29,916 bases of DNA from a virus. Taxonomy: Duplodnaviria > Caudoviricetes. The translations under genes were made by a program, and so were the position numbers. The stretch covers positions 1 to 29,916 of IMG/VR virus record IMGVR_UViG_3300032266_000608; one strand, 5' to 3'. The notes below the pieces were generated by a model. That model made no database searches, was not told the DNA's origin, and saw only the letters and a list, made by a program, of their open reading frames with translations. This document shows positions 2,148 to 20,233 of the stretch, piece after piece; position 1 is the first letter of the stretch; the number at the start of each line of letters is the position of its first letter.

Positions 2148-3263
2148 TTATTTTGTCAATGACTGATTTACTGCTCTGATTTTTTTGAAGATCGCCTCCG
2201 CAACGTGCGGTACGATTGCATTTCCGAGGGCTTTAAGGCGGTCCACCCGATAGGGTATCCCATTAGCCACTCTACAAATGCCGGGTTCAGAGAGCCAGAC
2301 TGCTTGTCCAAATTGTCCGTCGCTTGGACTGCTACATCGAGTGTGTCCCTCGATATTTTTCCGTCTCTCATTCTCCCACCCACGTAGCCCCCCTTCCCGT
2401 CCCTCGACGATGGTGTTGGCCACATCTTGACTGCTGTCTCCAGCGTTGCTCCCCACTTCACTCCCTTGGCCGAGACTCGACTCTTCCCGCTCTTGTCTAC
2501 GCTTCCCGCAATCGAACCCGTGTGCGGACCACGTGGAGTTGCCGAAGGTGTAGGCCACATCATCACAGACTCGTTTACCGCCTTCACCAGACACCTGAAT
2601 CTGTTGTCCTTCGGATTCACGTTGGATGCGTTGTCTGCTGTCGGAGTCGGCCACATCTTGGGGTGTACCACTTGCTCCCGAAGATTGCCCGATCTCGTTC
2701 TGTTCTTTCTGTTCTTCTGGTTCGTGCTGCAATCTTCCGCTGGTCTGCTCGGAAGATGATCCATTGTGTTCGGGGTTGCCCAGAATGCGTGCGATGATCC
2801 AGCATCTGTCTCTTCTGTGCGGGGCATCGACACCTGCAGCCGGAATAATAAGCGTTTCGACTTCGTAGCCAATTGCTTCCAAGTCAGAATGCACTTGGTC
2901 GAGTGCCAGATTGATGAGACCAAACACATTCTCACCAACGACCCAAGTGGGCTTGGCTTCTTGTATAACTCGGAGCATTTCTGGCCAGAGGTAGCGGTCA
3001 TCCTCCTTGCCTCGTTGCTTCCCGGCTTGGGAGAATGGCTGACAAGGAAACCCACCTGTGAGCAGTTCGATTTCTCCGTAGGCATCGCCCTTAAACTCTC
3101 TGATGTCGTTGACGATTGGGATTTCTGACCAATGGGTTTTGAGGATTGCTCTGCAGTAGTGGTCTTTTTCGCAGAAGGCTTTTGTAGAGAATCCAGTTCT
3201 TCCTGCGGCCAAAGCGAATCCCCCGATTCCTGAGAAGAGGTCAAGATGGCCATTCACGCCCAC
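2148..3263 (-). CDS. DNA (cytosine-5) methyltransferase, catalytic (alpha) polypeptide
   Basis: Motif I DLFSGIGG, IV GFPCQPFS, VI ENV, VIII RxR (HRRDR), X RLKALGNAIVP. Confidence 0.92.
   Translation of the reverse strand: MGVNGHLDLFSGIGGFALAAGRTGFSTKAFCEKDHYCRAILKTHWSEIPIVNDIREFKGDAYGEIELLTGGFPCQPFSQAGKQRGKEDDRYLWPEMLRVIQEAKPTWVVGENVFGLINLALDQVHSDLEAIGYEVETLIIPAAGVDAPHRRDRCWIIARILGNPEHNGSSSEQTSGRLQHEPEEQKEQNEIGQSSGASGTPQDVADSDSRQRIQRESEGQQIQVSGEGGKRVCDDVAYTFGNSTWSAHGFDCGKRRQEREESSLGQGSEVGSNAGDSSQDVANTIVEGREGGLRGWENERRKNIEGHTRCSSPSDGQFGQAVWLSEPGICRVANGIPYRVDRLKALGNAIVPHVAEAIFKKIRAVNQSLTK
2168..3253 (-). CDS. overlapping alternative-frame methyltransferase polypeptide (beta; WPTP repeats plus motif IX-like segment)
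   Basis: 361 aa open over nearly the whole MTase gene; four W(P/A)TP repeats; ends LNPAFVEWLMGYPIGWT; ATG3253 directly follows the upstream TGA. Confidence 0.7.
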   Translation of the reverse strand: MAILTSSQESGDSLWPQEELDSLQKPSAKKTTTAEQSSKPIGQKSQSSTTSESLRAMPTEKSNCSQVGFLVSHSPKPGSNEARRMTATSGQKCSELYKKPSPLGSLVRMCLVSSIWHSTKCILTWKQLATKSKRLLFRLQVSMPRTEETDAGSSHAFWATPNTMDHLPSRPAEDCSTNQKNRKNRTRSGNLREQVVHPKMWPTPTADNASNVNPKDNRFRCLVKAVNESVMMWPTPSATPRGPHTGSIAGSVDKSGKSRVSAKGVKWGATLETAVKMWPTPSSRDGKGGYVGGRMRDGKISRDTLDVAVQATDNLDKQSGSLNPAFVEWLMGYPIGWTALKPSEMQSYRTLRRRSSKKSEQ

Positions 3264-5702: not shown

Positions 5703-6278
5703 CTATTTGAACCGATGTTTCCTCCAGCTAGGAGTCTCATTTGAGCCTCCCCGAAGCTGGAATGGGTACACCGAGTCATTCTTCTTCATTACAACGCCCT
5801 CAAAAAACTCTGGGGCTTTCGCTAGTAGCTCGGCATACAGCGAGCGTGCGTTCTGCCCCAAGGCAGACGGCGAGACCACCAGTTCGTCCGTCCGTGGTAT
5901 CTCGCACCATCCAAGCACCCTACCCATTCGCTCGACCTTCTCACGGCGTTGGAGGTAGGTAGCCTCGACGGCACAATCCAGCGTATCTAGGACTATCAGC
6001 GAGCCTCTAGCCATTGAGTGACGGCGGGATAGGGCTTCCACGTCCAGCCACTCCGCATCTAGTTCGCTCGCTAGTTTTAACGCCTCTTCAAACTCGCCCT
6101 CAATCGAGAGCGGTTCGAGATGGCGATTCCACATTGTCCCGCTGGGGATATGCACAACCGCCCGCCATCCGTCATACTTCGGCTCAACCGAGTACTCTGG
6201 GTTGTCGGACGGCCATTTCTGCCCCCGCATAGGCCGAGCAGGAAAGGTCGGAGGGAATACTGCACACTCAGTTGTCAT
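5703..6278 (-). CDS. ATP-dependent DNA ligase-like adenylation domain (no OB-fold)
   Basis: Motif I EPKYDGWR, III LDVE, IIIa IVLDTL, IV EGVVMK, V WRKHR at the very C-terminus; start ATG6278 chosen from AGGA RBS. Confidence 0.8.
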   Translation of the reverse strand: MTTECAVFPPTFPARPMRGQKWPSDNPEYSVEPKYDGWRAVVHIPSGTMWNRHLEPLSIEGEFEEALKLASELDAEWLDVEALSRRHSMARGSLIVLDTLDCAVEATYLQRREKVERMGRVLGWCEIPRTDELVVSPSALGQNARSLYAELLAKAPEFFEGVVMKKNDSVYPFQLRGGSNETPSWRKHRFK

Positions 6279-6480
6279 CGGCATTCCTATAGCAGTAGTC
6301 CTCAATCGCCTCCTTCGGGGAACGCCCCAGACCAGCGAGCGAGCCATCCTCCCCGCAGTAGTTCTCGTCCGTGCAACTCCACCATCCCATCGGCTCTTCC
6401 ATAACGTCGAGCGTCATGCATCGGCGTTCCAATCCGTCAGTTCCGTTTGACTCCATAGCCTCTAGCTCGATGGCATTCAT
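6268..6480 (-). CDS. small acidic hypothetical protein
   Basis: 70 aa, TAATG-coupled to the upstream gene, GGAGG RBS. Confidence 0.55.
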   Translation of the reverse strand: MNAIELEAMESNGTDGLERRCMTLDVMEEPMGWWSCTDENYCGEDGSLAGLGRSPKEAIEDYCYRNADDN

Positions 6481-7007
6481 TAGAAGCCTCCCGAAATCAC
6501 TTTACGGCTCACCAGTATGGGGTAGGTGCGTCCAGTAGAGCAATCGAATCCCTCAAGCATAGAAGGCTCGAATATGTCCGTATGCCACTTTCCGTCACCC
6601 TCGTCCATCCAGCGGTTGCGGAGTCGCTTGCCAGTCACGTCGGCCATCTTCTGTAGGACGGGGTCGGGTGGAGACCACGCAGTTAGGAAGGAGCATTTTT
6701 TCTCTGTCACCCAGCTAAACTCGTAGCAGTTCCACTTCGTACCCCACTTGGCAACAGACCAGTCGTACCAGTTCGCAAAGCCGTAGAGCTTCACGTTTTT
6801 TGCGAATACCTTGGCAATCGGTTCGCTAGACTTGGGGTTGTAGGGAAGGCTCTCGCCCCGAAACCCAACCGCATCGGGCATCGGTATGACCTTGTTAAAG
6901 TCAAGTTGACCATCCTTCTCCACGTCAAAGTCTAAAAACATCGCTAGGATTGTCTTGAGACCTTGTTTACCAGCTACGCTGACTATGTTTGTGATATGAT
7001 TCGGCAT
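6480..7007 (-). CDS. YubB/DUF1281 ferredoxin-like domain protein
   Basis: MPNHITN...WYDWSVAKWGTKWN...FLTAWSPP matches the family signature. Confidence 0.8.
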   Translation of the reverse strand: MPNHITNIVSVAGKQGLKTILAMFLDFDVEKDGQLDFNKVIPMPDAVGFRGESLPYNPKSSEPIAKVFAKNVKLYGFANWYDWSVAKWGTKWNCYEFSWVTEKKCSFLTAWSPPDPVLQKMADVTGKRLRNRWMDEGDGKWHTDIFEPSMLEGFDCSTGRTYPILVSRKVISGGF

Positions 7008-7220
7008 TTACCTACCCTTCCTTTCGTCCCTATCGTTGTCCGTGGCAATTAGAATATCGTCACGCAATAGGTTGATTTTGTATTTTCTGTTAGCAACGCC
7101 AGCAATTATTTTGAAACAGCTTTCTAAAGCCGTATTCTGCCAGCGGGTCGAGCGATCAAAGCCATCGCCCATCCACGATTGCACCATTAAAGGTGTGATA
7201 TTTGTTTTTGGTGTACTCAT
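7008..7220 (-). CDS. hypothetical protein
   Basis: 70 aa, operon packing. Confidence 0.55.
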   Translation of the reverse strand: MSTPKTNITPLMVQSWMGDGFDRSTRWQNTALESCFKIIAGVANRKYKINLLRDDILIATDNDRDERKGR

Positions 7221-7480
7221 TTTTCCTCCTGTTTGGTTTGCAAACGCTTCAGTTCATCTTGTCCGTACTCCGTCAACTTGTAGGGGTTGCGGATATACGC
7301 ACAATGGCACTCCCTTATCATCCCCTCTTCGCCTACCAGTTCATCTAGTTCGGCATTAGAGAGGTCGTCGGGCAGTTCCTCGATTACATTCACATAATCC
7401 AGAATCTCAAGTAGCCTCTGGTTAGCGACGTACTCTGCTCCGTGGTCGTAAGGGTCGCCCTCACGCACTAGGAACATCAT
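7217..7480 (-). CDS. acidic hypothetical protein
   Basis: ORF track 7217..7495; ATG7480 overlaps the upstream TGA. Confidence 0.55.
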   Translation of the reverse strand: MMFLVREGDPYDHGAEYVANQRLLEILDYVNVIEELPDDLSNAELDELVGEEGMIRECHCAYIRNPYKLTEYGQDELKRLQTKQEEK

Positions 7481-7626
7481 AGTTCCCCCGCCCATACTGC
7501 TTCAAAGCATTCGTCACAAGAGATGTAGCTCATCTTCTCGGCCTCCTGCTTATCGGCGATGCACGGCCTCCTACGGATGCCATCACGCTTGTTACAAGTC
7601 TCGCAAACGCCAGTCTCGCAACTCAT
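7477..7626 (-). CDS. small zinc-finger-like protein (49 aa)
   Basis: Read by hand: MSCETGVCETCNKRDGIRRRPCIADKQEAEKMSYISCDECFEAVWAGEL; CxxC...CxxC; ATGA overlaps at both ends. Confidence 0.6.
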   Translation of the reverse strand: MSCETGVCETCNKRDGIRRRPCIADKQEAEKMSYISCDECFEAVWAGEL

Positions 7627-7889
7627 CGTACTGCCTCCAGTTCCATAATGAGATCAGCCAGTTCGGATACGGAGATCGCCACAGCGTCCTTAATCGTGGA
7701 ATCGTAGTTACCAGACTCGACTCCACGTAGGGCGGTTGAGGCGTGGTCAATACCCAGCTTTGACAACTCTCCGAGTTCCTTCACGACTGCGGTACGCATC
7801 GTCCCTAGCTCAAGGCGAGGGTCGAACACGCTCTTGAACAAGTTCCACACTTCGTCAGACTCTTCGATCATTCGTTTTGTGGGACTCAT
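7623..7889 (-). CDS. hypothetical protein
   Basis: 88 aa, operon packing. Confidence 0.55.
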   Translation of the reverse strand: MSPTKRMIEESDEVWNLFKSVFDPRLELGTMRTAVVKELGELSKLGIDHASTALRGVESGNYDSTIKDAVAISVSELADLIMELEAVR

Positions 7890-7893
7890 AGGG

Positions 7894-8517
7894 TTAGGCT
7901 AGTTTGACTTGGATAACAGCGGGGTAGATCGCTTGGAGCTTGGCGTTGCCGTCAACACCCAACACAGCGGGACGTGCCTCGTGGAATCCAGCCTTCGGGG
8001 AGAATCCGCTCGTATAACTCACAGCCGAGGAAAGGCCGAGAGACTCAAAAAGTTTTGCAACCTTCTGAGCCACTTCGGCGTGACGCTCGACTGGAATCTT
8101 CGAGGATTCGACTTTGATCGTAAACTGCTCCGCAAAGTGATCGCCAAATCCGAGGCGTTCAATCTGCGTAAACAGAGCAGAGTGTTCGGGCTTTGCCAAA
8201 TCCAGCGAAGAATAGCGGTTGGTCGGCACTACCTTGGCCGAGCAATCCTTTCCTATCACTTCGACTGGATTGGGGAATGTCGCCCAGCAACGTGCCAACA
8301 CAGAGCCGAGAAACGCTTGCCGTGTTGCAGAGTTTTTATTTTCTAGCTCCGCAACTTCGTCACGTATCTGGTGCATCGTGCGGAGTTGACTATCCTCCAC
8401 TTCGCTCGCCGTAACTTGCGGGATAGTTTTTTTGTTGGACTTCTTTTGCAGACCAATCCCAGCCAACACCGAGGTAGGTCGCTTGGTTTCCGTTGTTTGT
8501 TTTGTTTGTGTGTCCAT
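7894..8517 (-). CDS. hypothetical protein, first (leaderless) gene of the long early operon
   Basis: 207 aa; ATG lies 6 nt after a -10 box. Confidence 0.7.
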   Translation of the reverse strand: MDTQTKQTTETKRPTSVLAGIGLQKKSNKKTIPQVTASEVEDSQLRTMHQIRDEVAELENKNSATRQAFLGSVLARCWATFPNPVEVIGKDCSAKVVPTNRYSSLDLAKPEHSALFTQIERLGFGDHFAEQFTIKVESSKIPVERHAEVAQKVAKLFESLGLSSAVSYTSGFSPKAGFHEARPAVLGVDGNAKLQAIYPAVIQVKLA

Positions 8518-8523
8518 ATTCGA

Positions 8524-8551
8524 ATCCTACATTGTAGGAGAAGCGTGTCAA
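8524..8551 (-). promoter_or_regulatory. sigma70-type leaderless promoter with overlapping palindrome
   Basis: TTGACA(8551-8546)-N16-TAGGAT(8529-8524)-N6-ATG8517; TCCTACA-T-TGTAGGA at 8525-8539. Confidence 0.65.
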
Positions 8552-8954
8552 CAGAAAAAAAGAAAATAGTTTTAACAAAGTTGACATCGTGTTGCCGTAC
8601 GTGATTCCGAAGAATTTGCGAAACGCAAAATCCCAGGCCGGGGGATGATTTCCAGGTGATGCCGGGCTTCGCATCCCGTCCGTTTGTTGAAAATGAACAA
8701 CTTACATTTTTGATGTGTGATTTGATTCTGATCCTGCGGCCGGCGCATTTTGCCCGTGCTGATAATCAGGTAGTTATGCAAGCCACAGTGTTTACGGCGG
8801 ATCTGCCTAAAAATCTAAATCACACACCTCATCCATAGCCGTTCGCTCGGTAGCTCGTTCGCTAGTTAACAACAAGTGATGTGTAAGTATATGGTACTAC
8901 CAATTTTAGAATTATTCTAAAGAGTGGTCTGGGAAAAACGTGGGAAAATTAGGA

Positions 8955-8993
8955 CAAAAAAAAGGAGGCGGAGGGATCAGCCCCCGCCCCCTT
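8955..8993 (-). terminator. intrinsic terminator
   Basis: Minus strand GGGGCGGGGG-loop-CCCTCCGCCTCC followed by T8, just after ORF 9011..9373. Confidence 0.75.
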
Positions 8994-9010
8994 GTGTGAT
9001 TTGGAGTAGC

Positions 9011-9373
9011 TTAAACCGCCAACCACTCCTCAATAGCGGAGGTAGCTCGACGAGCCTCCGTGCCCCGCCCGAAACAATCTTCGTATTTCAGCCCCAGATC
9101 GGAGCAGATTGAACGGAGCAGGGTCAGCCCATAAACTCCAGACAATTCCTCCACCCGCTGTCCGTCCACGAAAATCATCCCCTTGGGGTCTTTCTTCGAG
9201 GATTTGAACGAACGGATGAAACGGCCACGGACTGCATCGGGAAAGCCGTTCAGAACGGACGGATTCCAGATTGTGTGACCATCGCTCCCGATTTCTTCCA
9301 GTAGCTTGCGGATTTCATTTTTTAGCGAGGAATTGAACCGCCCCGCTTCGGTTTTTTGTGTGTGTGATTTCAT
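9011..9373 (-). CDS. hypothetical protein, monocistronic leaderless cassette
   Basis: 120 aa with its own promoter and terminator. Confidence 0.7.
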   Translation of the reverse strand: MKSHTQKTEAGRFNSSLKNEIRKLLEEIGSDGHTIWNPSVLNGFPDAVRGRFIRSFKSSKKDPKGMIFVDGQRVEELSGVYGLTLLRSICSDLGLKYEDCFGRGTEARRATSAIEEWLAV

Positions 9374-9379
9374 CCTGCG

Positions 9380-9408
9380 AAAATACCAACGGCCTCCGTA
9401 CGTGTCAA
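9380..9408 (-). promoter_or_regulatory. sigma70-type leaderless promoter
   Basis: TTGACA(9408-9403)-N17-TGn-TATTTT(9385-9380)-N6-ATG9373. Confidence 0.65.
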
Positions 9409-9470
9409 CTTAAAATCACACGTGCAGCCAGATCAAAATTGAGAATCACACACGCCGACCACACGCAGAC

Positions 9471-9507
9471 AAAAAAAAGGAGCGGGAGATTTCTCCCCCG
9501 CCCCTTT
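9471..9507 (-). terminator. intrinsic terminator (paralogous to 8955-8993)
   Basis: Minus strand GGGGCGGGGGAG-loop-CTCCCGCTCC followed by T8. Confidence 0.75.
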
Positions 9508-9524
9508 CGTGTGTGATTTAGTTT

Positions 9525-9725
9525 TTAGTAAATATCGTCGACGGCCTCCGTCGTAGATTTAACCACACGGAAACCGCCTCCGAGATATTTGTTCAAATCC
9601 ACACACTCTGCCTCTGCCTCCTTTCTGGTATTAAAAAAATAATCCCCATAGTTTGCCGAGCCGTCCACGCTCTTGCGAAGATCAGCCCAGCCGTTCACGC
9701 CTAGCGTTTGGATTTTGTACTGCAT
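9525..9725 (-). CDS. hypothetical protein
   Basis: ORF track 9525..9857; ATG9725 has GGAGG RBS. Confidence 0.55.
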   Translation of the reverse strand: MQYKIQTLGVNGWADLRKSVDGSANYGDYFFNTRKEAEAECVDLNKYLGGGFRVVKSTTEAVDDIY

Positions 9726-9727
9726 AA

Positions 9728-9973
9728 CTAACCTCCGCACCCGCACCCGACATATCCGACCTTTACCGCCTCCGTCACGCACGACATATCGCCACAGATT
9801 GCAATATGCGACAACGCAAAGGCTGGACGTTCGCCGTAGTAATGATGCATTGACCATTTGGCGGGACGCTTGTCACACACCACGCAGTCACACTCATAAC
9901 CCACGGCGTTGCACGCCTCACCCTTATGGCGTTGCCACTCTGCCACCTCTTTTTTCTGCTGGGGAGTTAACAT
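9728..9973 (-). CDS. Cys-rich small protein (probable zinc binder)
   Basis: CECDCVVC-like cluster and C-x4-C; ATG9973 with GGAGG RBS. Confidence 0.55.
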   Translation of the reverse strand: MLTPQQKKEVAEWQRHKGEACNAVGYECDCVVCDKRPAKWSMHHYYGERPAFALSHIAICGDMSCVTEAVKVGYVGCGCGG

Positions 9974-9974
9974 C

Positions 9975-10238
9975 TTAAACCTCCCCAATCGCCGTGCGGT
10001 TGCGGTGTGCTAACGACTGATTCAGCGACGAATCCCAATGACCATCTTCGTAGATTTCTATGGGGTAAAAATCGCTTCCGTGAAGCGTAAACCCGAAACC
10101 CTTTTCGTCTGTTTGCAAGGTTGCCAGCCCCGCCTTAAATAACTGCATTAAGAAAATAAGGTTTGAGCCACTAACCGACATTTGCCCAGCCTCACTCAAT
10201 GCTAATTCTGCTTTCGTCCATTCTCTTTTCGTTTCCAT
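9975..10238 (-). CDS. hypothetical protein
   Basis: ORF track 9975..10430; ATG10238 has AAGGGAG RBS. Confidence 0.55.
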   Translation of the reverse strand: METKREWTKAELALSEAGQMSVSGSNLIFLMQLFKAGLATLQTDEKGFGFTLHGSDFYPIEIYEDGHWDSSLNQSLAHRNRTAIGEV

Positions 10239-10260
10239 TTTTTTGTATCTCCCTTTTTTG

Positions 10261-10455
10261 TTAATTGAAAAAACCAGCCGACACACGCCAGCCGATAATT
10301 TCAAAATATCCATAGCCGACAACCAAAACCCGAACGCCACGATGCAAGACCAGACGGATGCGGGAGAGGGAGATTTGAACTCCCCTTCCCCCGCCCCACG
10401 CCACACACATACCGCCGAGTGTGTAGCCACGGATGCCCTTGGAGAACTTAAACAT
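10261..10455 (-). CDS. hypothetical protein
   Basis: ATG10455 with GGAG RBS, overlapping the end of the amidotransferase gene. Confidence 0.4.
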   Translation of the reverse strand: MFKFSKGIRGYTLGGMCVAWGGGRGVQISLSRIRLVLHRGVRVLVVGYGYFEIIGWRVSAGFFN

Positions 10456-11470
10456 CGCAGTCTCCAAAATTATCCGTCACGAACTTCGTTCCAGCGTAAT
10501 CGGGAACGCCGTAATCGGATGCCCCGAACTTCCGTGCTTCCACCTCCTCCCAATGGTCAAGGTAGAGTTTACGAGCCACACGGAAGCCACGATTTGACGA
10601 ATAGTGGCCTTTATCGTTTGGGTCAGTCATCCACCGCAAAAACGAATCGGAAACCGCTGGATTTTTGCGAACCCATTTTTTCCAATCCGATTTGTTGCCG
10701 TACGACTCCACCCAATCACACCACGCCTCTGCGTTCAAATGATCGCCGAGGAACTCTTGGAATAGAGCCTCCGTGTCATCGTCCTCCGTCATCATCACGT
10801 CCGAGGAAACCGCAGTCTCTCCCGCATAATGCGAGGGAAGCCGAGAATCCACGCCACGGAAACCTAGCTCCGTCTGCTTGTAGCCCTTGTAGCCTCCAGA
10901 GTAGTAGGACGTTGTCGGGTACGTGAATGCCTTGTAAGAGCTATTCGAATACCACACGCCCCGATCATCGTCCCAATGCCCCGCCCCTTCGTTCACGATT
11001 AGGTGCTTTCCGTCAGCACGAAGGAAACAGAACTTATTGGAGTACCCAGCGAGGAGATGCAGATTCAACGATGCGTGACTGCTCCACAGCCACTCTCCCG
11101 CCGTGTCCCGCTGATTCGGTTTCACGAGGAGATTTGCGAAATGCCAAGTATCGCTGAACTGCTTTTCTGGGGTGGGAATTGTCAAAATCCCGTTATGAAT
11201 AAAGGCGGTAGAATCATCCACCAAAAAGGGGTGACAATTCGCCTCATTCTTGTCTCCGTGCGTTGCCATTCTCAAATGAATGATGGCGGGATATTCCTTA
11301 AACTTTTCGAGAGTGTGTAGAATACCATCCAACTTCATTGAACGCACCACGTGGATTTTTTTGCCCAACGCAACGGCCATTCCAAAGCCATCGCCGTTCG
11401 CCTTACTTGCCGTGACGATATGGCTAGGTGGGATTTTCCCACCCGCCGTTTTATAGATTGCTAAACACAT
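10448..11470 (-). CDS. class II (Ntn) glutamine amidotransferase
   Basis: N-terminal Met-Cys nucleophile; NGDGFG, HLRMATHG, NCHPF, HNG and SDT motifs. Confidence 0.9.
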   Translation of the reverse strand: MCLAIYKTAGGKIPPSHIVTASKANGDGFGMAVALGKKIHVVRSMKLDGILHTLEKFKEYPAIIHLRMATHGDKNEANCHPFLVDDSTAFIHNGILTIPTPEKQFSDTWHFANLLVKPNQRDTAGEWLWSSHASLNLHLLAGYSNKFCFLRADGKHLIVNEGAGHWDDDRGVWYSNSSYKAFTYPTTSYYSGGYKGYKQTELGFRGVDSRLPSHYAGETAVSSDVMMTEDDDTEALFQEFLGDHLNAEAWCDWVESYGNKSDWKKWVRKNPAVSDSFLRWMTDPNDKGHYSSNRGFRVARKLYLDHWEEVEARKFGASDYGVPDYAGTKFVTDNFGDCDV

Positions 11471-12669
11471 TATGCTACCCTCCCTTTATTGTGTCCCATT
11501 TTGTCGAAGGCAACGTTGCCCCAACCATTGTTAATGAGACGATTTTTTAGAGCCAAAACGGAACAGCCGATTCCGCTTGCGATTTTTTCCAGCCCGACTT
11601 CCGAAACAGCAAACCACGCCGAGCCGTTTGGCTCGTAAATAAATGGGATGCTATTGACCATAGCGAAACAGCGGGGAATGCCACGTGTCCCGCTTGTAGG
11701 TACTGGTATCCGCAGTCTCCGTGCCAACTGATCGCAGGACAGCGAAGGAACAATCCACGAAGCCTTCAATTCCTCTGCGAGACAATCCAACGTGAAGTTA
11801 AGATTGCCACACGCCGATGCAATAGCAGGACGTGATTCGTGTGTGGATTCAGCCACAGCGGATTCACGCTCCCGCCACATCCTAGAACGTAGCTCCCGCT
11901 GGATGCTGGATTGAACCTCTTTATACTGGTCAACGAATTGGGAGAGATTCGGCCAGCGGAGAAGCCGTGCATCCGATTCGTCTCTGGATTTCAAAAAATC
12001 CAAGAAACCATCTTCCGTACGCACCGACTTTTCTGCCTCACCGAACGCCCAAACCGCCTCCGCAAACTCCACCGCACGAAGGATTGAGGCGGGACGAAGA
12101 TTGCCCCGAAAAATCCGCAATTCGTGTGTGCTATGCCGAGGATTCGTATTGACCGCCACGTAGCGATCAGAGCAACGCCGACTGCGTCCGTTTATGTAAC
12201 GCCCAGCGTCAGCCTTATTGCGAATCGTGTGAAACTTACACCAACGACTATTTTCCCGCCCAGCGAGGGAGAGAACGAAATTGCGAATGGCGGGATGTTC
12301 CACAGCCAAAACCGCAGATGCGTCCTTTCCGCTCATACCGAACTGGGGGATATGCGTATGCAAACCACACGTGGACGTGTCCCACGATTGCAGACCACGC
12401 CTCACAGATTGCGTCAGCAAACCGCCCCACATTTCCGTGTGATACTTTCTGCCCATAGGACGTGTAACGATTTCAAAGCCGTGCGATAGACTGCCATCGC
12501 CTTTGATAATCACACGTTCGCCCTCGGAGTTAAGAGCGGAAAGAACCTCGGATGCCTTTTCCGAGATATTTTCGCCGACATACTCCACTTCCAATTCAAC
12601 GCCAATGGTAGGCAGTCCGTCCAACGCTGGAGCGGTACGAGCATCACTTCCGAGAATCACGTTCGGCAT
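11470..12669 (-). CDS. putative amidoligase (COOH-NH2 ligase, Amidoligase_2 type)
   Basis: TIGVELEVE, DGSL, FEIVT, TCGLHTH, RYVAVN, ELRIFRG; ATG12669 has AAGGAG RBS; TAATG-coupled to the amidotransferase. Confidence 0.85.
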   Translation of the reverse strand: MPNVILGSDARTAPALDGLPTIGVELEVEYVGENISEKASEVLSALNSEGERVIIKGDGSLSHGFEIVTRPMGRKYHTEMWGGLLTQSVRRGLQSWDTSTCGLHTHIPQFGMSGKDASAVLAVEHPAIRNFVLSLAGRENSRWCKFHTIRNKADAGRYINGRSRRCSDRYVAVNTNPRHSTHELRIFRGNLRPASILRAVEFAEAVWAFGEAEKSVRTEDGFLDFLKSRDESDARLLRWPNLSQFVDQYKEVQSSIQRELRSRMWRERESAVAESTHESRPAIASACGNLNFTLDCLAEELKASWIVPSLSCDQLARRLRIPVPTSGTRGIPRCFAMVNSIPFIYEPNGSAWFAVSEVGLEKIASGIGCSVLALKNRLINNGWGNVAFDKMGHNKGRVA

Positions 12670-12670
12670 T

Positions 12671-12844
12671 TTAGTTTTTCTCCTTCCGTGTGTGCTTTGA
12701 TACGTTCCATTTTTCAGCGTAAGAATCACGATCTCCGAACGAATACGACGAGAAGTATTCTACGGAACTCACACGTGCGAGAGTTTCAGTTTTTTTGCGA
12801 ATGTCTTGAACGGCCTTCGCTTCCGTTGTGTTTTGTGTTTCCAT
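12671..12844 (-). CDS. small leaderless first gene of the amidoligase operon
   Basis: METQNTTEAK..., 57 aa; ATG 6 nt after the -10 box. Confidence 0.6.
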   Translation of the reverse strand: METQNTTEAKAVQDIRKKTETLARVSSVEYFSSYSFGDRDSYAEKWNVSKHTRKEKN

Positions 12845-17724: not shown

Positions 17725-18060
17725 TCATAGCATCTGCATTTCTGCACGCTTGGAGCTTTCCATGCTCCTCCAGATCTCAATTTTTGATTGGGCGGTAAGC
17801 ATGAGCCACTTCAGCTTTTCTTCACCAGCAATCGCCTCCTTGATTCCAAGTAAGTGCTGATTGTAGTCGGGGTGTCCGTGAGCATACCTTTCTTGGCCAG
17901 CGATAGTTTTTTCTCCAGCGATCATGGCATCCTTCATCAACCTCGCCTTGACGGAGTCGGTGAAGTGCTCCAAGTAGTGCCGATTTGCTTTTGCCTCGGC
18001 AAGTTTTTCAGCGTGTTCACGCATCCAGTCTGAAATTGCGATTGGATCTATGTCGCTCAT
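17725..18060 (-). CDS. conserved helical phage protein
   Basis: 111 aa, ATGA-coupled to the ATPase gene. Confidence 0.7.
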   Translation of the reverse strand: MSDIDPIAISDWMREHAEKLAEAKANRHYLEHFTDSVKARLMKDAMIAGEKTIAGQERYAHGHPDYNQHLLGIKEAIAGEEKLKWLMLTAQSKIEIWRSMESSKRAEMQML

Positions 18061-18701
18061 CGTTCAGCCTGGATTTCGTGAACATCGCACGACTCTGCAA
18101 ACCTTGCATATGTGGCGATGATGCGTTCGTCCATCATAGATGCTTGCTGAAAGCTGTTCGATGTAATTATCGTAGGTAACTTGTTTGCAAGCCTGCCTTC
18201 AGCAATTAGGTACATCCCCTCCATTACTGGACCAGTTTGCTGTTCTTTCCCAAGATCGTCCAAGAACAAAACACCAACCTTACAAATCCTGTCGATCTCT
18301 TCTTCACGGCCATCCCGTGAACTCATGGACAGCTTCATTCCAAGCCTGACAGACGATACCGCATCAATGGAGCGACCACGCAATAAGGCACGACGCAGAG
18401 CCGTGAACGCCGCTCTGGTTTTTCCGATTCGATGGGGACCAGTCACCCAGAGTCCTTTTGACCCCTTTTCGTTCCACGCATCAAAAATAATCTTCACGGA
18501 AAACGGAAGTCTGTCTGGTTCTGTCTCGCGATACGCCGGCGGGCATACCTTTTTCCATATCTCGTCACATCTCTCAAGGTGACGCATAGCGATTTCTTCT
18601 TCACGTTTTTTCTCCCAATCGACCTTGGGCTTGTTTTTGACTGCACGCTCCAGCGAGTCCAATGCTTTTTCCATTTCTGTTGTCATGTTAGTTTTTGCCA
18701 C
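18057..18701 (-). CDS. DnaC/IstB-like AAA+ helicase loader
   Basis: Walker A GPHRIGKT, Walker B LFLDDLGKE, PTIITSN; downstream of the initiator. Confidence 0.85.
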   Translation of the reverse strand: MAKTNMTTEMEKALDSLERAVKNKPKVDWEKKREEEIAMRHLERCDEIWKKVCPPAYRETEPDRLPFSVKIIFDAWNEKGSKGLWVTGPHRIGKTRAAFTALRRALLRGRSIDAVSSVRLGMKLSMSSRDGREEEIDRICKVGVLFLDDLGKEQQTGPVMEGMYLIAEGRLANKLPTIITSNSFQQASMMDERIIATYARFAESCDVHEIQAER

Positions 18702-18936
18702 GGCGTTTACCTATATTAGCCATAGCCTCCTCTCTTCTTTTTTGCAAATAATCTTCCCAGAGTGTTGCGGCTTTCATCGCATCCTCTTTGTTTGTGAAAG
18801 AAAATAATGGGTCTGGGTGTTTACCCCCCATAACAAACCTATGCCCCATTGGGTTTTCGCCGCAAACATCACTTCGAGTCCATAGGTTAAATCTGTCATC
18901 TTCACGTCTAATAAAAACTTCAACTGCGATGTTCAT
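18688..18936 (-). CDS. hypothetical protein
   Basis: 82 aa, ATGA-coupled. Confidence 0.6.
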   Translation of the reverse strand: MNIAVEVFIRREDDRFNLWTRSDVCGENPMGHRFVMGGKHPDPLFSFTNKEDAMKAATLWEDYLQKRREEAMANIGKRRGKN

Positions 18937-19676
18937 ATAATGACCTTCTTAATAGTTCCAGGCGGGAGAATGTCCTTAAACGCCATCCCCTTGTTTATTG
19001 GATTCATGCGTTTGAAGTTTCTGTTGCTCTGAAAGTCTGACCAGAATCTTGCAAGAATCGACTGCCATCTCATAATCGGCCTTCCAGAGAGTTCCCAATT
19101 CATGTCATTCAATCTAATGAACTCCGTCTTTAGCCACCCCTCATCAGCCATAAGCCGTTTGCCTTCTGCCATCCATTGTTCGATTGTCGGAACGCCGCTA
19201 GTAGCTGGCTTATGGCTACTGGTTATATGGTTATTGGCTTCTGGCTTATGGTTATTCGGCATCAATTCAGCATCAACAGAAACATCAAACTCTGGTTTTT
19301 TAACTTCCCTAGTTTTTCTGATATAACGCTTCTGGCTTTCGTTGTGCAACTTGCGGGCCTTACTTTCACGTAAAAGCCTACGTGAGTATATGATCATTCT
19401 GTCATCACGAGCAAAGACACCTGCATTTTCAAGCTCGTCAAGTAGTGACTTAACCTTGCTGATTGCTTCTGCCGTGTTTCCAACACCAACAGCCATCGAA
19501 AGCATCCTTTCGTCCATCGGTCTGTCAGCATCATTTTTGAGATACCCATACTCTGGGGATCTTGCCATAAGGCAGAGCATATCGATCCAGAGTCCACGGG
19601 CTTCCAGACTTACCATTCTGAGGGCGTTGTCCGACATCCAATCCCTTACATAAAACTGCAGGAATTGCATTTTCAT
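18933..19676 (-). CDS. phage replication initiator (DUF1376/YdaU, lambda O-like organisation)
   Basis: FLQFYVRDWMSD..LRMVSLEARGLWIDMLCLM; internal iteron-like repeats; followed by a DnaC-like gene. Confidence 0.75.
   Translation of the reverse strand: MKMQFLQFYVRDWMSDNALRMVSLEARGLWIDMLCLMARSPEYGYLKNDADRPMDERMLSMAVGVGNTAEAISKVKSLLDELENAGVFARDDRMIIYSRRLLRESKARKLHNESQKRYIRKTREVKKPEFDVSVDAELMPNNHKPEANNHITSSHKPATSGVPTIEQWMAEGKRLMADEGWLKTEFIRLNDMNWELSGRPIMRWQSILARFWSDFQSNRNFKRMNPINKGMAFKDILPPGTIKKVII
19205..19256. repeat. iteron-like direct repeats (candidate origin)
   Basis: CTGGCTTATGG at 19205 and 19241, CTGGTTATATGGTTATT at 19219, in the linker of the initiator gene. Confidence 0.55.
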
Positions 19677-20050
19677 TTGGTTTCCTCCTTAATAATTCGG
19701 ATGAATGTCATTTGGACATCACCCCTTTTGTGTGTGTGAAAAACTGATCGAACCACTCCAGGGTTGTCATCTGGCAAATAGCCGAGTTCGACAAGGCTAT
19801 CGAGGAGGTCTTTGGTGTCGTAGTTGTCGATATCAAGCAACCTTGGCCGAATGTGGTGGAACCAGATATCGTATGTTTCTTTGCGTCCAGAACAGCTTTT
19901 CTTGCCTCCTGCTTTAGCCTTCGATTTATTGCCCAATGAAGTCGCTTTGTCTTGTTTCTGCTTGGAACGGCGTAATTCAGCTCCAGTACCAATATCTCTT
20001 GGAATGGAGTACCCAAGTTGTTTAATTTGTCGTCGTGTAACACGGCTCAT
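19673..20050 (-). CDS. rusA: RusA-like Holliday junction resolvase, catalytic C-terminal part
   Basis: RLLDIDNYDTKDLLDSLVELGYLPDD matches the RusA D-x-D-N..K..D..L.....DD motif. Confidence 0.7.
   Translation of the reverse strand: MSRVTRRQIKQLGYSIPRDIGTGAELRRSKQKQDKATSLGNKSKAKAGGKKSCSGRKETYDIWFHHIRPRLLDIDNYDTKDLLDSLVELGYLPDDNPGVVRSVFHTHKRGDVQMTFIRIIKEETK
19708..20043 (-). CDS. overlapping frame carrying a RusA N-terminal-like segment
   Basis: ILVLELNYAVPSRNKTKRLHWAINRRLKQEARKAV resembles the P-S-x-N...HW....K N-terminus of RusA-family proteins. Confidence 0.55.
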   Translation of the reverse strand: MLHDDKLNNLGTPFQEILVLELNYAVPSRNKTKRLHWAINRRLKQEARKAVLDAKKHTISGSTTFGQGCLISTTTTPKTSSIALSNSAICQMTTLEWFDQFFTHTKGVMSK

Positions 20051-20080
20051 TATTTTCCTTTTTTGAGCAAAGCATCGTGC

Positions 20081-20109
20081 CTTCTAACAATCTAATTATA
20101 GCGTGTCAA
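20081..20109 (-). promoter_or_regulatory. promoter of the replication operon
   Basis: TTGACA(20109-20104)-N17-TAGAAG(20086-20081). Confidence 0.5.
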
Positions 20110-20154: not shown

Positions 20155-20233
20155 GACGGCTATGGGTTCCCCTTCTCGGGGTTCAGCGCGGTTTGTGTGT
20201 CCCGCTGGTTTCCTCCCCATAGCCGTCTTTTTT
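20155..20233 (+). ncRNA. putative ~80-nt three-way-junction antisense small RNA
   Basis: 12-bp closing stem GACGGCTATGGG/CCCATAGCCGTC plus T6; two internal hairpins; own promoter. Confidence 0.65.

Follow-up and report, generated by a model that had tools for sequence, protein, structure and literature searches.

How can one nuclease fold be encoded in two reading frames that overlap on the same strand? This question is raised by a RusA-like gene in a virus record of 29,916 bases (the window, i.e. the whole stretch of DNA analysed here), the completeness of which is estimated at 41% and the gene content of which includes terminase, major head protein and replication genes. Genes for DNA-ligase-like and class II glutamine amidotransferase-like proteins (weak Pfam matches) are found at positions 5703-12729, next to a gene for a 419-aa protein without a Pfam match. 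The RusA-like gene is the first of a leftward run and is followed by a replication-initiator-like gene, a small ORF and a DnaC-like loader. A first-pass annotation had described its two overlapping frames (A and B) and had offered two explanations, a two-chain enzyme or a chain made by ribosomes that move from B into A by a -1 shift near 19875-19900. The overlapping frames, their coordinates and their RusA motifs are all present in the sequence as claimed (Table 1).

The reading we prefer, with a probability of roughly three in four, is that a RusA-type fold is encoded here in nested frames, likely as two chains with their own starts, which are predicted to form an A2B2 complex and likely cut branched DNA. 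Chain A would start at ATG20050 and pass through the B core as an unstructured linker, and chain B would start at GTG20043 or at the TTG at 20016. The fold would be rebuilt by the B strand joining the last strand of A and by the B helix lying on helix 2 of A, with all catalytic residues supplied by A. The two chains would come from one short message, because their starts are likely served by a common SD or by a single terminating ribosome, and the complex would likely act on branched DNA during phage replication.

Table 1. Positions of the features of the split RusA-like gene and its surroundings in the window
Feature	Position	Strand	Description and basis
Frame A (125 aa)	19673..20050	-	ATG20050 to TGA19673; N-tip, unstructured basic stretch, RusA catalytic half; sequence, PHROG
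A N-tip	19997..20050	-	About codons 1-18, Q-I-K-Q-L-G-Y motif, selected in frame A; substitution counts, motif
A core	19676..19876	-	Strand 2, D73/D75/N76/K80, helix 2, D94-D95, strands 3-4; alignments, selection
Frame B (111 aa)	19708..20043	-	GTG20043 to TAA19708, +1 to A, nested within A; sequence, profile
B core	19876..19995	-	Strand 1, PSxN, HW, helix 1 (to P+29); adjoins A core; profile, selection, model
Alternative TTG start of frame B	20014..20016	-	5 nt past uORF stop; in L007/L008 the TTG overlaps the uORF stop; sequence
SD-like AAGGA	20056..20060	-	5 nt before the ATG of A, 12 nt before the GTG of B
Putative uORF (17 codons)	20022..20075	-	Third frame, ATG20075-TAA20022; sequence, clade alignment
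A-AAA-AAG in uORF frame	20058..20064	-	-1 product would stop at TAA 20052-20050, overlapping the ATG of A; sequence
Promoter-like element	20081..20109	-	Invariant TTGACA, 17-nt variable spacer, TA(A/G)AAG; 5/5 clade loci
Replication-initiator-like next gene	18933..19676	-	phrog_345, E 8.6e-4; its own ATG overlaps the stop of A (ATGA)
DnaC-like helicase loader, same gene run	18057..18701	-	phrog_50, E 8.3e-14

The two halves and their relatives

Frame A has three RusA-like matches in PHROG, of which phrog_1682 is the best (E 2.4e-6) and phrog_34 is weaker (E 1.3e-4), and it contains the catalytic set D73-x-D75-N76, K80, D84 and D94-D95. The acidic residues, the Asn and the Lys are invariant in 14/14 proteins of the window's clade, which were picked without motif selection. 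In the scanned loci described below the conservation of most catalytic residues is by construction, since the scan pattern fixes them; the first Asp, which lies outside that pattern, is invariant in 29/29 rows. The 13 homologue clusters of A (60-98% identity) are all 125 aa long and align without gaps. Concerning more distant comparisons, neither A nor B had a tblastn match among 50,697 GenBank phages, and only unnamed viral clusters were found for A in the ESM Atlas, the nearest with a name being RusA in 16% of its members (score 0.82). The AlphaFold model of A alone (mean pLDDT 50) lacks helix 1 and was too weak for a structure search.

Frame B carries PSRN at residue 27 and HW at residues 36-37, and its tail is Ser/Thr-rich and without selection on its sequence. 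The RusA similarity that had been proposed for it is borne out: against an N-half profile built from single-chain relatives only, B of the window scores 17.5 bits, compared with 11.9 bits for the top off-frame score among 262 single-chain loci. Using hhalign, the B-core alignment matches the N half of a single-chain alignment of 90 sequences with E 2e-10, and the A-core alignment matches its C half with E 4e-19. Frame B has no match in PHROG and no relative among 5.8 billion clustered proteins, and the ESM Atlas returned only unrelated eukaryotic clusters for it.

Split genes in assemblies are often artefacts. We compared the A/B stretch with contigs from four runs, each of which contains at least half of the sampled words; two of the runs are labelled freshwater metagenome, and one is possibly the source of the record. 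No indel was found in the A/B stretch in the contigs of these four runs, which differ by substitutions only, and run X5 covers it without a break, at 13 substitutions. RNA runs contain just 0.04-0.17 of the window's words. Both frames are open in the five clade loci with their 5' end on record. A simple indel had been doubted from the beginning, and the contigs and the gap-free clusters agree with that view. The use of contigs instead of raw reads speaks for a sequencing error; such an error, or a decayed gene, has a negligible probability and is ruled out by the missing indel, by the 13 clusters at 125 aa, by the 45 versus 0 frame asymmetry and by purifying selection on both halves, the last two of which are described below.

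Homologues were scanned for with the catalytic half alone, which gave 37 loci, then at least 120 of an estimated ~540, at least 120 of ~660 and at least 120 of ~300. With the clade loci added and identical stretches dropped, the set comprises 348 motif-selected loci, among the matches listed. The N-half profile (strand 1 to helix 1) was built from 101 single-chain representatives, the split locus L069 having been left out of the 102 seeds. At a cut of 8 bits, 262 of the 348 loci (among the matches listed) have their best N half in frame, 45 have it in the +1 frame and none has it in +2; 38 loci gave no call and three were too short. This cut is leaky, as off-frame single-chain scores extend to the maximum given above and four split loci score only 10.9-11.5, though these have PSLN. 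The 45 split loci (among the matches listed) form 29, 20 or 14 groups at 90, 80 or 70% DNA identity, respectively, and the 20 groups are used as lineages; the PSxN position of L251 was set by hand to -39. Looking at bacterial genomes, 3/99 loci among the matches listed are split (two Verrucomicrobiota and one Bacteroidota). An in-frame N half is missing in 122 of the 149 nearest representatives of A. Both shadow signatures of B are present in 10/96 protein-only entries, compared with 14/20 split and 2/172 single-chain representatives; the signatures are weak, and the 96 protein-only entries were therefore left out of the split count. The split of RusA across nested frames is real, conserved and widespread. 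No split or nested RusA was found in the literature searched (mostly without subscription papers, supplements aside); in the accessible parts of PMC3711429 and PMC5009743 the word 'resolvase' does not occur, and neither does 'RusA' in that of PMC5009743.

In a quick and poorly resolved tree of the C half, the split rows cluster (5 changes vs 18.7 when shuffled), and the window's clade groups with the single-chain loci L004/L012 (SH-aLRT 90), which bear a long linker insert. Several single-chain loci near the window's clade (L004, L011-L015, L044, L049 and L079) contain a basic insert of ~40-50 residues. This insert sits exactly at the linker between helix 1 and strand 2, which is the split point. 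The minimal split is seen in L401 (122-450), in which the ATG of A lies 23 codons before DN, B stops 4 codons before DN and the overlap is ~20 codons.

Selection, open frames and start codons

Substitutions were counted in 29 linked pairs for the cores and in 15 pairs for the N-tip of A. In the B core, synonymous and nonsynonymous changes number 168/83 when read in B and 22/237 when read in A, and their distribution over the codon positions of A (205/76/51) is concentrated on the wobble position of B, which indicates translation of B in some form. The A core shows 206/74 in A vs 44/248 in B, with the changes (78/25/228 by A codon position) concentrated on the wobble position of A. Purifying selection acts on each frame over its own half. 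Concerning the N-tip of A, the counts are 25/24 in A vs 8/46 in B, and in the window's clade selection is seen on frame A over codons 1-19 and on B thereafter. A tip resembling Q-L-x-x-L-G-Y is present in 7/20 split lineages vs 0/170 single-chain controls, the motif having been drawn from the very sequences in which it was counted.

Frame A is open over 30 codons of the B core in 19/20 lineages, the exception being L401, in which A has an ATG of its own immediately ahead of strand 2. For comparison, this frame is open in 28/83 GC-matched single-chain genes, and 7.7/20 lineages would be expected if B were recoded synonymously; the third frame is open in 2/20. Since the lineages are related, these counts are not independent and their significance is overstated. 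The dual-open arrangement is shared by relatives, both in the five clade loci and in the wider set of lineages. The first-pass annotation had both frames open to the end of the gene, which is correct for the window but does not hold generally: across the split lineages the stop of B lies between 12 codons before and 71 codons after the catalytic DN. The unselected tail of B (19708-19876 in the window, and in relatives) is open to at least +36 codons past DN in 14/20 lineages, compared with 8% of 114 controls. This long open tail is unaccounted for by the two-chain model.

In a fixed interval upstream, an ATG is found for A in 16/20 lineages (6.6 expected) and for B likewise in 16/20 (6.3 expected). 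Among the matches listed, 43/45 split loci have an ATG in A and 39/45 in B, and every locus has some start codon; the only start of A in L072 is a late TTG, and this locus shows an apparent one-base deletion relative to L057. A stop in frame B overlaps the start of A in 12/20 lineages. The order of the starts flips inside one clade, with A followed by B at +7 in L050/L066 and B followed by A at +14 in L060/L078. The window itself has the two starts 7 nt apart behind a single AAGGA, as noted at the outset, and an AAGG(A/G) SD-like element is kept in 5/5 clade loci. In this clade B lacks an ATG and has only GTG or TTG, and TAA TGA interrupts frame B at the start of A; the GTG is lost in L007/L008, in which an in-frame TTG is found six codons later instead. 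The initiation of B in the window's clade is the weakest step of the two-chain model.

Junction, leader region and competing readings

The single-chain model matches E. coli RusA in Foldseek (E 6e-5, TM ~0.65) and has helix 1 extending to P+29, a linker of 11 residues and strand 2 at DN-15 to -7. The distance from PSxN to DN is 38-46 codons in the 20 split lineages vs 53-109 in 130 single chains (those of the 172 representatives in which PSxN could be located). The A-[LF]-x-x-A-L helix motif of B is in register with PSxN at every offset, to P+28, so that at offsets 38-43 (15/20 lineages) the end of the helix and strand 2 share codons. The offset of the window and its clade is the longest (46), with about one residue between the helix end and strand 2, and a fused chain, its linker being about one residue, would therefore be less strained there than elsewhere. 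The A2B2 model has a score of 0.65 vs 0.02 for the best of three controls. This shows fit and not binding, since chains cut from one fold can score well where they resemble solved RusA, and the prediction may reproduce RusA structures that the predictor has already learned. The score mark is reached by 116/157 solved complexes and 2/215 mismatched pairs. The A2B2 runs show at least 97% contact agreement and a partner pLDDT of at least 80, and in the model the B strand pairs with the last strand of A and the B helix packs on helix 2 of A.

Upstream of the gene, the uORF, its heptamer and the -1 stop are present as had been claimed, whereas the leaderless character of the uORF has no support from a sigma-70 scan, which gave no minus-strand promoter at the leader; the 5' end is not set by any consensus promoter. 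In 5/5 clade loci (three lineages) the block of 19 nt that begins at ATG20075 and ends with the heptamer is invariant, without synonymous variation, and just 2 positions of the 17-nt spacer upstream are kept. The position of the uORF stop, identical in three lineages, was discounted because the I/L-K/E codons of A produce it. TTGACA-17-TA(A/G)AAG is possibly a non-consensus promoter, judging from its sequence; TA(A/G)AAG deviates from the consensus -10 (TAnnnT). The A-run of the heptamer runs into the SD, and GCTCA could pair with TGAGC around the SD and the ATG, in a fold no better than shuffles (z 0.12). A leader-motif scan matched 25 loci, and the one relative among them was the contig already known. 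As the gene is the first in its run, the leader could replace the upstream gene whose stop overlaps the start of A in other lineages. It is conceivable, if doubtful, that the leader acts as a splitter: a -1 slip at A-AAA-AAG would lead to a stop on the TAATG of A and a restart, and ribosomes that do not slip would terminate next to the TTG of B. In that case the A:B subunit ratio would be set by how often ribosomes shift frame, an unusual use of frameshifting. A simpler reading of the region is one SD serving two starts, 5 and 12 nt off. Further upstream, between the divergent genes (20155-20227 of the window), there is a perfect 12-bp stem around variable inner helices (fold z -5.5). Both arms of this stem are invariant in 5/5 clade loci, without covariation; the hairpin has no Rfam match above chance, and a scan for relatives gave just the contig already known.

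In one alternative, ribosomes would undergo a programmed -1 shift out of B and into A near 19876-19890, which would yield one RusA chain and leave the N half of A untranslated. The offset fits a -1 shift in 45/45 split loci (among the matches listed), the cores of the window's clade adjoin without overlap, and A_AAG or A_AAA lies at B codons DN-19/-18, i.e. at the helix end, in three clade lineages (the window, L007 and L009, with A-AAA-AAA in L007); A_AAG is described as a shift-prone tetramer in the accessible part of PMC5009743. A slippery heptamer is not conserved at the junction: strict heptamers occur in 4/20 lineages vs 6/80 controls, with none at the junction of the window, in agreement with the first-pass annotation, and no stable RNA structure was found there (z 0.67). 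Frame A stays free of stops over its N half, with selection on the tip, and the codons shared by helix 1 and strand 2 in most lineages leave hardly any room for the helix-strand linker. The shift once suggested near 19875-19900 is thus unlikely, and the two-chain reading is favoured over a -1 fusion by the selection, open-frame, start-codon and geometry tests and by the complex model.

Two chains could also be made with B entered by recoding, through a +1 shift from the N-tip of A or a -1 shift from the uORF past the ATG of A. The change of selection in the clade from frame A (codons 1-19) to B would suit this, as would the TAA TGA that closes frame B at the start of A and the restriction to GTG/TTG starts; it is quite improbable given that an ATG is available to B in most split loci, in several of them straight after a frame-B stop, and that a shift-prone motif common to the five clade loci was not found in the aligned stretch. 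Finally, A and B could fold together without being a Holliday junction resolvase, and bind branched DNA or cut forks or packaging intermediates. The stretch of arginines that precedes the first Asp is reduced (R-L-L-D vs R-R-R-D), the sequence similarity of A to E. coli RusA is weak (E 0.68), and a Pfam search of A and B gave no RusA match; the invariance of the catalytic acidic residues, Asn and Lys in the clade proteins and of the first Asp in all rows, together with single-chain kin such as L225 that also have the Leu, makes this very improbable. If the preferred two-chain reading is right, many phages bear a hidden gene B, and A-like database entries that lack the N half in frame are likely half-enzymes. 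The nuclease would then join the few enzymes built from nested frames, and would be a small testable case of one gene turning into two overlapping genes with one fold kept.

Comparison with known systems

E. coli RusA (PDB 1Q8R, 2H8C and 2H8E; PHROG 34, 1682 and 11894) shares the order of its elements with A plus B. Its residues D70/D72/N73/K76/D90-D91, the roles of which are given in the accessible part of PMC1636454, correspond to D73/D75/N76/K80/D94-D95 of A (aligned to 1Q8R). The four-stranded mixed sheet with two helices is also RusA-like, here by prediction only, and the gene is located in a phage replication module. RusA is one chain of 120 aa that forms a homodimer and cuts Holliday junctions symmetrically in an Mg-dependent reaction, whereas in the split gene a different frame encodes strand 1 and helix 1, no helix-strand linker is present and A has ~55 extra N-terminal residues. 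RusA also has an arginine-rich segment (65-69) with a conserved R69; at the position of R69 frame A has Leu (R-P-R-L-L-D), with two Arg kept. The split enzyme likely works in the manner of RusA. As the single-chain and R69 features are both lacking, the gene is filed as a split RusA-like variant and, because the R69 equivalent is Leu, resolvase activity is something we infer.

Concerning the translation signals, the A_AAA_AAG heptamer of the uORF is shared with -1 frameshifting of the dnaX and IS type (in the part of PMC5009743 available). Here the heptamer lies upstream of both frames, the -1 product ends three codons on and no stimulator was found. In E. coli, close start codons of the AUGUG/GUGUG type can yield both overlapping frames, according to the accessible part of PMC9841429; those starts overlap and are 2 nt apart, whereas A and B start 7 nt apart in the window and supply complementary parts of a single fold.

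The nearest precedent for the layout is M.EcoHK31I, a heterodimeric C5 methyltransferase whose smaller chain is encoded wholly inside another frame of the larger one and whose N-terminal part is dispensable (from the part of PMC2836561 available). The window also contains a C5 DNA methyltransferase in nested same-strand frames (2148-3263 and 2168-3253 on the minus strand, the second being the +1 frame), with matches to phrog_363 (E 9e-75) and phrog_1008 (E 1e-34), and so a second gene with the look of M.EcoHK31I. In M.EcoHK31I, as far as that source goes, a second piece of an enzyme is nested in another same-strand frame, as B is in A; the fold and chemistry are different, and the nested piece is motif IX there and an N-terminal strand plus helix here. 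Unlike in M.EcoHK31I, the starts of A and B lie only 7 nt apart.
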